A DNA stretch of 5,827 nt, taken from the IMG/VR virus record IMGVR_UViG_2585427710_000003, positions 1 to 5,827 of that record; one strand, written 5' to 3'. Origin of the DNA: a virus (taxonomy: Duplodnaviria > Heunggongvirae > Uroviricota > Caudoviricetes). The position numbers and the translations under genes are program-made. Shown piece after piece: positions 1,737-2,790 of the stretch (the stretch's first letter is position 1; every line of letters begins with the position of its first letter). Below the pieces are notes generated by a model that ran no database searches, was not told where the DNA came from, and saw nothing but the letters and a program-made list of their open reading frames with translations.

Positions 1737-2248
1737 GCGAGATTAATTATCAGGAAGGGCATGAAACGGCAGGGCAGGCAAAACCAGTGGCATGGCGATA
1801 TCGCTACGTGAAAAAAGACGTTACAGACTTTCAGGGGAAGCAGTGGGCTGGTGACTGGAAATATGTACCGACAAAAGAGGATTGTAACGACAGGCCGAAC
1901 TATGAAATTCAGGCCTTATTCATCGGCCCGCCAGTCCCGGTGACATCAGAAGGACTGGTTAAAGCTGTGCGCTTTTATGAACAGGTAAAGCGTGAGAATC
2001 CGCCAGTCGAAACAGGAGCATGGAAGGATGCTGTTGACTGGGTGCTCAGAGAGGCCTGCTGTGCTGCCATTCTGGGTAAAGCCGACAATCCACCAGCATC
2101 CGGCAATCAGGTTAGCGAATTAGCAATGTGGGTTAAACGGCTGGTCAGCCAACTGAAAAAAGCGAAGCCGGACTGCAAATTACCGGATAAGGCGATGGAC
2201 TACCTGAAGCGAAACGGACTGATAAACGAGGAGAATATTTTACGATGA
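1733..2248 (+). CDS. Hypothetical phage protein (171 aa)
   Basis: ATG start coupled to the upstream ORF, 171 codons with balanced composition. Its first 8 codons are duplicated at 1224-1247. Stop TGA 2246-2248 overlaps ATG 2245 of a micro-ORF. No family recognised. Confidence 0.6.
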   Translation: MSEINYQEGHETAGQAKPVAWRYRYVKKDVTDFQGKQWAGDWKYVPTKEDCNDRPNYEIQALFIGPPVPVTSEGLVKAVRFYEQVKRENPPVETGAWKDAVDWVLREACCAAILGKADNPPASGNQVSELAMWVKRLVSQLKKAKPDCKLPDKAMDYLKRNGLINEENILR

Positions 2249-2328
2249 CCTGGCCTGAAGCGTTCATAACGGTAGGAATTGCAATGGCGGTGGCGCTGGT
2301 GGTGTATTCGATTTGCCGCTGGGGATAA
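2245..2328 (+). CDS. Possible 27-aa hydrophobic micro-protein (MTWPEAFITVGIAMAVALVVYSICRWG)
   Basis: ATG 2245 overlaps the stop of the 171-aa gene (ATGA). The peptide has a single predicted transmembrane-like hydrophobic core and ends at TAA 2326-2328. It is too short to judge by statistics; the coupling is the only support. Confidence 0.3.
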   Translation: MTWPEAFITVGIAMAVALVVYSICRWG

Positions 2329-2335
2329 AAACGGT

Positions 2336-2363
2336 TTGCGGGGAAAGAAGAGTTAAGTAGAAT
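2336..2363 (+). promoter_or_regulatory. Candidate promoter for the hok/mok mRNA (-35 TTGCGG 2336-2341, 16-bp spacer, -10 TAGAAT 2358-2363)
   Basis: Sigma70-like hexamers with correct spacing lie just upstream of a sequence (GGTGCTTGAGGCTGTCTGCC, from about 2371) that resembles the 5' end of plasmid R1 hok mRNA as I recall it. Confidence 0.4.
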
Positions 2364-2424
2364 TGCTGCGGGTGCTTGAGGCTGTCTGCCTCGGGCATGC
2401 CGCCGTAAGGCAGACAGAGAAAAG

Positions 2425-2490
2425 CCCCAGTTAACATTATGCGTCCGGCAGGACGCTTAACATTAATCTGAGGCCATATCTATGACTTGC
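2425..2490 (-). ncRNA. sok: Sok-like antisense RNA (antitoxin of the hok/mok type I TA locus); ends approximate
   Basis: Minus strand has -35 TTGCCT (complement of 2520-2525), a 17-bp spacer and -10 TAATCT (complement of 2497-2502), which would start a transcript near 2490. That transcript is antisense to the mok SD and start (2468-2484) and contains the GCGTCC-GGCA-GGACGC hairpin (2441-2456). This matches the known hok/sok arrangement. Confidence 0.4.
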
Positions 2491-2694
2491 ACACTTAGAT
2501 TAGCCTCTTATGCGCCGAAAGGCAAGGAGCAGCAGGCTATGAAGCAGCAAAAGGCGATGCTAATCGCCCTGATCGTCATCTGTATTACCGTCGTTGTAAC
2601 GGTACTGGTAACGAGGAAAGACCTCTGCGAGGTACGAATCCGAACCGGCCAGACGGAGGTCGCTGTCTTCACAGCTTACGAACCTGAGGAGTAA
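2482..2694 (+). CDS. mok: Mok-like leader reading frame (70 aa), in frame with hok and sharing its stop
   Basis: ATG 2482 has GAGG about 9 nt upstream. The ORF runs in frame into the hok ORF, as I recall chromosomal mok/hok pairs do. The sok target would cover its start. Confidence 0.5.
   Translation: MTCTLRLASYAPKGKEQQAMKQQKAMLIALIVICITVVVTVLVTRKDLCEVRIRTGQTEVAVFTAYEPEE
2497..2525 (-). promoter_or_regulatory. Candidate sok promoter on the minus strand, inside the mok coding region
   Basis: Reverse complement of 2497-2525 reads TTGCCT-17 bp-TAATCT. The position inside mok and the orientation toward the mok start match known hok/sok loci. Confidence 0.4.
2539..2694 (+). CDS. hok: Hok/Gef-family type I toxin (51 aa, MKQQKAMLIALIVICITVVVTVLVTRKDLCEVRIRTGQTEVAVFTAYEPEE)
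   Basis: ATG 2539 with AAGGAG at 2524-2529. The translation has the Hok/Gef signature: N-terminal transmembrane helix, TRKDLCEV, and a ...EVAVFTAYE... tail. From memory it is closest to HokD(RelF)/HokC(Gef). The flanking mRNA elements (leader, mok, terminator) are all present. Confidence 0.9.
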   Translation: MKQQKAMLIALIVICITVVVTVLVTRKDLCEVRIRTGQTEVAVFTAYEPEE

Positions 2695-2762
2695 GAGACC
2701 AGGCGGGGGAGAAATCCCTCGCCACCTCTGATGTGTCAGGCATCCTCAACGCACCCGCACTT

Positions 2763-2790
2763 AACCCGTTTCGGCGGGTTTTGTTTTTTC
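2763..2790 (+). terminator. Rho-independent terminator of the hok mRNA
   Basis: AACCCG (2763-2768) pairs with CGGGTT (2775-2780), followed by TTGTTTTTT (2781-2789). It sits about 70 nt after the hok stop. Confidence 0.7.

Follow-up and report, generated by a model that had tools for sequence, protein, structure and literature searches.

On the plus strand of the DNA analysed here (the window, 5,827 nucleotides) lie two overlapping reading frames, mok and hok, which are accompanied by a series of putative regulatory elements. According to the list of open reading frames, mok (70 aa) is in frame with hok and shares its stop codon, a layout that is also that of the annotated mokW and hokW of phage 933W, and by analogy hok would be translated via mok (translational coupling). 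The hok product, of 51 aa, is HokD/RelF-like and fits the small hydrophobic toxins of the Hok/Gef type: its identity to proteins that bear the annotation Hok family toxin or HokD, all of them PF01848, is 90-98%. Rfam family RF01794 (hok-leader/sok) matches positions 2370-2544 over its full model (1-157) with 114.8 bits, the gathering score being 59. The features of the locus are listed below.

2336-2363, plus strand: putative hok promoter (-35 TTGCGG at 2336-2341, 16-nt spacer, -10 TAGAAT at 2358-2363)
2370-2381, plus strand: tac (translational activator element), the likely mRNA 5' end, GGGUGCUUGAGG; begins at the first position of the RF01794 match
2382-2417, plus strand: leader hairpin (stem 2382-2391/2408-2417, 10 bp, pair probability 0.83-1.0)
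2388-2398, plus strand: nascent-hairpin partner of tac, in a predicted metastable hairpin (2372-2382/2388-2398)
2420-2490, minus strand: Sok-like antisense RNA (putative antitoxin), positioned through its homology to the sokW annotated in 933W
2422-2430, plus strand: ucb (upstream complementary box, anti-SD), AAGCCCCAG
2470-2473, plus strand: mok Shine-Dalgarno (SD) GAGG, 8 nt before the mok ATG at 2482, read from the sequence
2482-2694, plus strand: mok reading frame
2494-2503, plus strand: dcb (downstream complementary box), CUUAGAUUAG
2525-2497, minus strand: putative sok promoter (-35 TTGCCT at 2525-2520, 17 nt, -10 TAATCT at 2502-2497), read from the sequence
2539-2694, plus strand: hok toxin gene, with AAGGAG upstream at 2524-2529
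2702-2723, plus strand: G+C-rich 3' stem-loop (9 bp, GAAA loop), predicted in the full-length and the trimmed folds
2744-2756, plus strand: fbi (fold-back inhibitory element), CCUCAA-C-GCACCC with C2750 bulged, the partner of tac
2763-2790, plus strand: intrinsic terminator of the hok transcript (stem 2763-2780, then a T-run), from the terminator scan and the full-length fold

The locus has early-region ORFs on one side and DUF968, RusA and Q-like genes on the other. By their gene content, these surroundings are what is usually seen in the early right region of lambdoid prophages, and on sequence the locus is carried in the nin-like region of such a prophage of E. coli. The hok locus shows 98.3% identity to E. 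coli prophage DNA, and the whole window shows 98% identity to prophages from bovine and human E. coli isolates. The hok segment, annotated there as hokD, is matched in 4733 of the 5426 complete E. coli genomes, and sequenced E. coli prophages contain thousands of copies that are almost the same as the window locus at the level of the DNA letters. Its identity to the hokW/mokW/sokW loci of phages 933W and VT2-Sakai (Sp5) is 88.8%.

The codon for Tyr47 of hok, UAC, is followed by a G. The tetranucleotide UACG (window 2677-2680, within ...ACAGCUUACGAACC) is a TadA recognition motif that is said to allow A-to-I editing, and hence a change of Tyr to Cys, in hokC/D/E mRNAs (bioRxiv 10.1101/2025.08.07.668861); its context, TTACGAA, is nearly invariant in 54 aligned loci (alignment columns 314-321). 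Just upstream of the hok promoter there is a hydrophobic ORF of 27 aa (window 2245-2328, MTWPEAFITVGIAMAVALVVYSICRWG), whose start, ATGA, overlaps the stop of an upstream ORF of 171 aa, and which may encode a small membrane protein.

Homologous loci, transcript ends and the Sok region

A phmmer search with the window Hok gave 91 cluster representatives. Our comparative set consists of 73 loci encoding relatives of this protein, one genome per species, sampled from ten genera (Escherichia, Shigella, Kluyvera, Photorhabdus, Pantoea, Erwinia, Pseudocitrobacter, Citrobacter, Mixta and Enterobacillus). The loci were found with an alignment of five Hok sequences, broader sets (29 and 9 sequences) having no stretch that was conserved enough; the set is thus one of Hok proteins with a TRKDLCEV-type core, and the R1, srnB and pnd branches lie outside it. 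The mRNA 5' ends of the homologous loci were set by the Rfam model, and 54 distinct full-length homologous mRNAs were aligned with MAFFT (alignment A4).

Several of these loci have particularities of their own. The hok/sok locus adjoins a CRISPR array in Erwinia sp. CGal63 and Kalamiella sp., with direct repeats (Rfam CRISPR-DR4; L066 253-400 and L070 362-389) about 100-240 nt upstream of the hok mRNA start. Mixta mediterraneensis (L063 1044-1127) and Erwinia tracheiphila (L071 976-1065) have Rfam sRNA-Xcc1 matches at a distance of about 190-200 nt downstream of the hok stop. Photorhabdus temperata and Enterobacillus tribolii contain tandem hok/sok loci on the same strand, about 560-630 nt apart (L040 556, 1185; L058 456, 1019), and in an Enterobacteriaceae isolate (L034, 1-140 and 533) a second leader lies upstream, cut by the end of the locus. 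Near-identical E. coli-type hokD loci (89-94% protein identity) were also found on contigs whose labels are Veillonella parvula MAG, Acinetobacter idrijaensis and Xanthomonas pisi (L002, L026 and L033). Two of these contigs measure just 275 and 431 bases, and the occurrences are probably due to contamination or mis-binning.

Judging from the sequence, the hok transcript most likely starts at G2370, because the RF01794 model begins there and a conserved -10 box ends 6 nt upstream. In almost every one of the 60 distinct upstream sequences, a TAnAAT-like hexamer precedes the GGG start by exactly 6 nt, and the sequence upstream of this hexamer diverges among the homologues. The hok -35 is weak and its conservation is limited to the hokD/W subgroup. 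When the window was scanned for consensus sigma-70 promoters, neither the hok nor the sok promoter was called at the threshold of the scan, and both are proposed here from their conserved position rather than from the consensus scan. Near the other end of the transcript, the 3' stem-loop is paired in 96.6% of the cells of the homologues, and five of its nine pairs have changed on both sides. By analogy with the mutagenesis of R1 (PMC9841398), this stem-loop is likely to be the 3' end protector of the processed mRNA. It should be noted that we infer the transcript ends and the 3' trimming of the window RNA from homology, that is, from R1 and the hokW literature.

The annotated sokW of 933W occupies positions 391-461 of its locus (L001), on the minus strand, and its offset to the window is constant at 2029 bases (alignment A4). 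In the corresponding region of the window the repeat finder detected a long hairpin (2431-2466), which is followed by CUGGGGCUUUU; a U-run accompanies the hairpin. The predicted Sok RNA would consist of a single-stranded 5' tail over the mok start and SD, the long hairpin, and CUGGGGCUUUU. We infer that the sok promoter lies at 2525-2497; the block that contains it (TTAGATTAGCCTCTTAC..GCCGAAAGGCAAGGAG) is nearly invariant in the 54 homologues.

Leaders of the hokD/hokW type contain an extra insert of about 18-20 nt, with a GCGUCCGGCAGGACGC core (window 2431-2466; A4 columns 75-94). The insert lengthens the hairpin that is the target of Sok and, on the other strand, the stem of the Sok terminator. 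Of the 54 loci, 21 have the insert, and those of the hokC type and those of Photorhabdus and Erwinia lack it.

Pairing between the ends of the hok mRNA

An initial annotation of this DNA had described positions 2371-2381 as nearly the reverse complement of 2744-2755, with a 1-nt bulge, and had compared this pairing with the fold-back inhibition of hok mRNAs. The letters are found where they were said to be, and so is the bulge. The extent of the helix needs correction, however: it comprises 12 bp counted from G2370, and not 11, since the transcript most likely starts at that nucleotide. The predicted fold of transcript 2370-2790 (RNAfold) pairs 2370-2375 with 2751-2756 and 2376-2381 with 2744-2749 (6+6 bp), leaving C2750 bulged. 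Each of these pairs has a probability of 0.97-1.00 in the whole-transcript fold, which has an MFE of -175.7 kcal/mol (z = -6.6 versus 100 dinucleotide shuffles), and both halves of the complementarity were recovered by the repeat finder as well (2376-2388/2737-2749 and 2367-2375/2751-2759).

Two extensions of this helix were considered and rejected. The upstream one, TGC 2367-2369 with GCA 2757-2759, is situated upstream of the probable transcription start and lacks conservation, other loci having GGC or other triplets there and non-complementary bases after fbi. The inner one, 2383-2388 with 2737-2742, competes with the leader hairpin, is absent from the MFE and shows no visible conservation.

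A 6+6 match with a bulge is not astronomically rare in a window of 5.8 kb, and it could be argued that a G+C-rich 5' segment matches the 3' UTR by chance. None of the 145 other 12-mers of the leader binds the 120-nt 3' UTR as well as tac does (-21.1 kcal/mol), while two out of 200 shuffled 5' 12-mers bind it equally well. What decides the matter is the comparison between loci, which refutes a chance match and leaves us giving it practically no credence. Firstly, an alignment-free test showed that the first 12 nt of the mRNA are complementary to a site at the same distance from the hok stop codon, 45-56 nt after it, in 56 of 61 loci, spanning ten genera; in all but one of these 56 the 5' 12-mer binds better than every other 12-mer of the leader. 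The five loci without an fbi site at this distance are damaged or unreadable: the K-12-type hokC (L018) has foreign DNA, most likely an insertion sequence, within the 3' stem-loop, by which fbi was removed; in L064 Hok is frameshifted and fbi is degraded; part of L048 is masked; L058b is truncated; and in L060 an fbi-like site follows the second hok copy, beyond the tested stretch. Secondly, the full-length MFE structures contain at least 10 tac/fbi base pairs in all 54 homologues, and in 53 of them the mok SD is on the ucb side.

Thirdly, compensatory changes between tac and fbi are found at several positions, as expected from the fold-back reading. The pair formed by position 4 of tac and its fbi partner is U-A in 39, C-G in 11 and U-G in three of the 54 mRNAs, with one mismatch. 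MAFFT sets the fbi variants that have the bulge off by one column from those that lack it, which depresses the apparent pairing of the distal half of the helix, and the variants were re-registered with RNAduplex. After this correction, which is fitted and therefore gives a lenient count, all 12 pairs are present in 44 of the 54 loci and none has fewer than 10. Position 12 is then G-C in 33 loci and A-U in 18, and rarer double changes occur at positions 7-11. In the Mixta locus the distal half of the helix is largely different (CUGGA with UCCA.G), and pairing is kept.

We consider it very probable that positions 2370-2790 (plus strand) correspond to a hok mRNA, that its locus is a complete type I toxin-antitoxin system (hok/mok/sok) belonging to the hokD/hokW subgroup, and that the reported complementarity is its tac/fbi helix. 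The tac/fbi element of hok-family mRNAs has already been described, and the pairing in the window adds nothing new to it.

Conformational switch and proposed mechanism

Two further results agree with the fold-back reading: a place in the window can be assigned to every element of the R1 hok model, and the predicted full-length and 3'-trimmed folds of the window RNA correspond to the inactive and active conformations. The partner of tac depends on the predicted state of the RNA, being fbi in the full-length form, ucb in the trimmed form and 2388-2398 in the nascent form. For the first 29-51 nt of the transcript, the MFE structure is the hairpin 2372-2382/2388-2398. Bases 2388-2391 of its 3' arm are shared with the 5' arm of the leader hairpin, which forms later. 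The leader hairpin had been reported with a stem of 9 bp; the hairpin is real, and its stem has one pair more. Its pairs are formed in 92% of the cells of the homologues, five of the ten having changed on both sides. In the full-length fold, ucb is paired with the mok SD region (2464-2474). The trimmed transcript was taken as 2370-2728, cut at an arbitrary point right after the conserved 3' stem-loop. In its fold, tac and ucb pair as 2370-2372/2426-2428 and 2374-2377/2422-2425, and in the MFE structure the SD region (2463-2472) is paired with dcb and no longer held by ucb. According to these models, 3' trimming would move tac onto ucb and free the mok ribosome-binding site, as in R1.

The competing helices are also conserved. 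The nascent hairpin is paired in 97.3% of the cells in the 54 homologues, compared with 25-49% when the partners are slid, and five of its pairs have double changes; the pair involving tac position 4 is U-A in 40, C-G in 12 and U-G in two of them. This position is bulged in the tac/ucb helix, yet it covaries with both its nascent-hairpin partner and fbi. The dcb helix is paired in 69.6% of cells, with three pairs changed on both sides. For the whole full-length fold the figures are 85.6% against about 41% for slid partners, with 53 pairs changed on both sides; these figures are to be read in the light of the fact that the window sequence itself was the source of one of the tested structures, giving this structure an advantage over the slid controls, that the aligned sequences are related and that the controls are lenient. 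Coupled covariation in hok family mRNAs was reportedly described by Gultyaev, Franch and Gerdes in 1997, and the covariation pattern of the window family is the same.

It is conceivable that the 5'/3' helix is real and conserved but serves mainly to shield the RNA ends from RNases, thereby building up a long-lived pool of toxin mRNA, and that translation is controlled by the ucb/SD pairing and Sok alone. The helix indeed closes the molecule end to end, and the R1 literature credits the closed form for the stability of the full-length RNA (PMC9841398, PMC3851714). Moreover, when the homologues were trimmed, at cut points that are arbitrary, the MFE structure switched to tac/ucb in only 21 of the 54. 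The SD/ucb pairing was kept in 33, so that removal of fbi does not always free the SD thermodynamically. By these models the switch is not uniformly predicted across homologues, though it is predicted for the window. We nevertheless regard a purely protective role as improbable. On the one hand, removal of fbi from the window RNA flips tac onto ucb and frees the SD in the predicted fold. On the other hand, the tac/ucb helix is paired in 99.2% of cells in the homologues, and in the Enterobacillus locus L058 a change of tac U7 to C is accompanied by a change of its ucb partner (U-A to C-G), while fbi pairs this C as C-G too. This conservation and this double change argue that the competition between tac, ucb and fbi is under selection. 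Besides, the protective and translational roles are not mutually exclusive in R1.

For a helix that acts as a translational switch, the mechanism would follow the R1 scheme, from which the names tac, fbi, ucb and dcb are also taken (PMC9841398, PMC3851714). During transcription, the local hairpin with 2388-2398 would hold tac. Upon completion of the 3' end, fbi (2744-2756) would capture tac (2370-2381) and close the molecule, and ucb (2422-2430) would sequester the mok SD, the full-length RNA being stable, untranslatable and closed to Sok. Slow 3' exonucleolytic trimming to the stem-loop at 2702-2723 would then remove fbi, allowing tac to pair with ucb and the mok SD region to pair with dcb (2494-2503), and the trimmed RNA would be open both to mok-coupled translation of hok and to binding by Sok. 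As long as it is made, Sok (antisense, about 2490-2420) would block the processed RNA; once it is lost, Hok would be produced. The analysis bears out the pairings, shows that they are conserved and covary, and predicts the change of conformation for the window sequence; the action of Sok and the toxicity would be as in the R1 and hokW literature.

According to reports summarised in bioRxiv 10.1101/2025.08.07.668861, hok loci on chromosomes do not bring about post-segregational killing, and the biological output of the window locus may therefore differ from that of R1. The same source reports an enrichment of hok genes in prophages. In a prophage, the output may be assistance of phage release or prophage maintenance rather than killing of the plasmid type.

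Known hok systems and the state of the window locus

The hokW-mokW-sokW locus of the Stx2 phages 933W and VT2-Sakai (Sp5) shares with the window locus the subgroup, the layout with mok in frame with hok, and its carriage by a prophage. Its tac (GGGTGCTTGAGG) and fbi (CCTCAACGCACCC) are identical to those of the window. The two loci differ in about 11% of their bases, and the C-terminus of Hok reads FVDYESEK in hokW and FTAYEPEE in the window. They also differ in their surroundings: the 933W locus lies near one end of the genome, beside a YgiW/YdeI-like gene, whereas that of the window is embedded between the early-region ORFs and the DUF968/RusA/Q-like genes. It has been shown experimentally that hokW-sokW is a working type I toxin-antitoxin system, with toxicity, antitoxin action and induction-linked production of Hok, and it has been reported to assist phage release (PMC8621323). 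That study, in which tac and fbi are not discussed, also shows shorter hokW RNAs on northern blots that were left unassigned there.

The hok/sok (parB) locus of plasmid R1 has tac, fbi, ucb, dcb, the mok SD, the 3' stem-loop and the antisense Sok, which in the window is putative, in common with the window, and its full-length, trimmed and nascent conformations, as described (PMC9841398, PMC3851714), are those predicted for the window RNA. The window differs from R1 in the 1-nt bulge of its tac/fbi helix and in the extra insert of its leader. In addition, its context is a prophage and that of R1 a plasmid, so post-segregational killing is not necessarily the outcome in the window. Searches of plasmids with the window query (tblastn and blastn) returned only hokD-like copies, mostly of the P1 type, and no R1 hok, which blastn missed because its DNA is too diverged from the query; the comparison with R1 is thus one made through Rfam and the literature, not by direct alignment.

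The hokD (relF) gene of the Qin prophage of K-12 encodes a Hok that is almost the same as that of the window (92-94%), and its 3' UTR, fbi and terminator are almost the same too. K-12 hokD, however, matches the window only from position 2525 onward; the promoter, tac and ucb are missing from it, as are the Sok region and mok. Likewise, the K-12-type hokD loci in our set (L010 and L011) have kept fbi and the terminator and have lost tac and the whole 5' leader. The fbi of K-12 hokD is therefore an orphan, whereas the window has a complete locus. Since many chromosomal hok copies have been inactivated, K-12-type hokD, K-12 hokC and L064 being examples, the window copy might also be a decaying relic that inherited the complementarity from a functional ancestor and no longer expresses a regulated toxin. 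We judge this to be very unlikely, even more so than the purely protective role. Both ORFs, both SDs, the -10 box, tac, ucb, dcb, the 3' stem-loop, fbi and the terminator are all intact in the window, and the closely related hokW-sokW is active (PMC8621323).

The bulge at C2750 is kept in the tac/fbi helices of hokD/hokW/hokC-type loci, which have about -21 kcal/mol, compared with about -25 kcal/mol for the perfectly paired helices of the Photorhabdus type. It is tempting to speculate, at rather long odds, that the bulged and weaker lock and the longer Sok-target hairpin of the prophage subgroup jointly tune the production of Hok to prophage induction, in which it would assist phage release as reported for hokW-sokW, and not to loss of the element. 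If true, the bulge and the longer hairpin would be a phage-specific retuning of the classical switch.

Beyond the annotation of the locus, the significance of the finding is small, and it provides a clean positive control for the detection of long-range RNA pairings by eye. For the prophage in the window, it means that, judged by its parts, it carries an intact and fully regulated hok/mok/sok cassette, unlike the relic hokD of K-12. For the family, it means that the RNA folding pathway of the R1 type has been kept, with coupled covariation, in prophage and chromosomal copies from at least ten enterobacterial genera.
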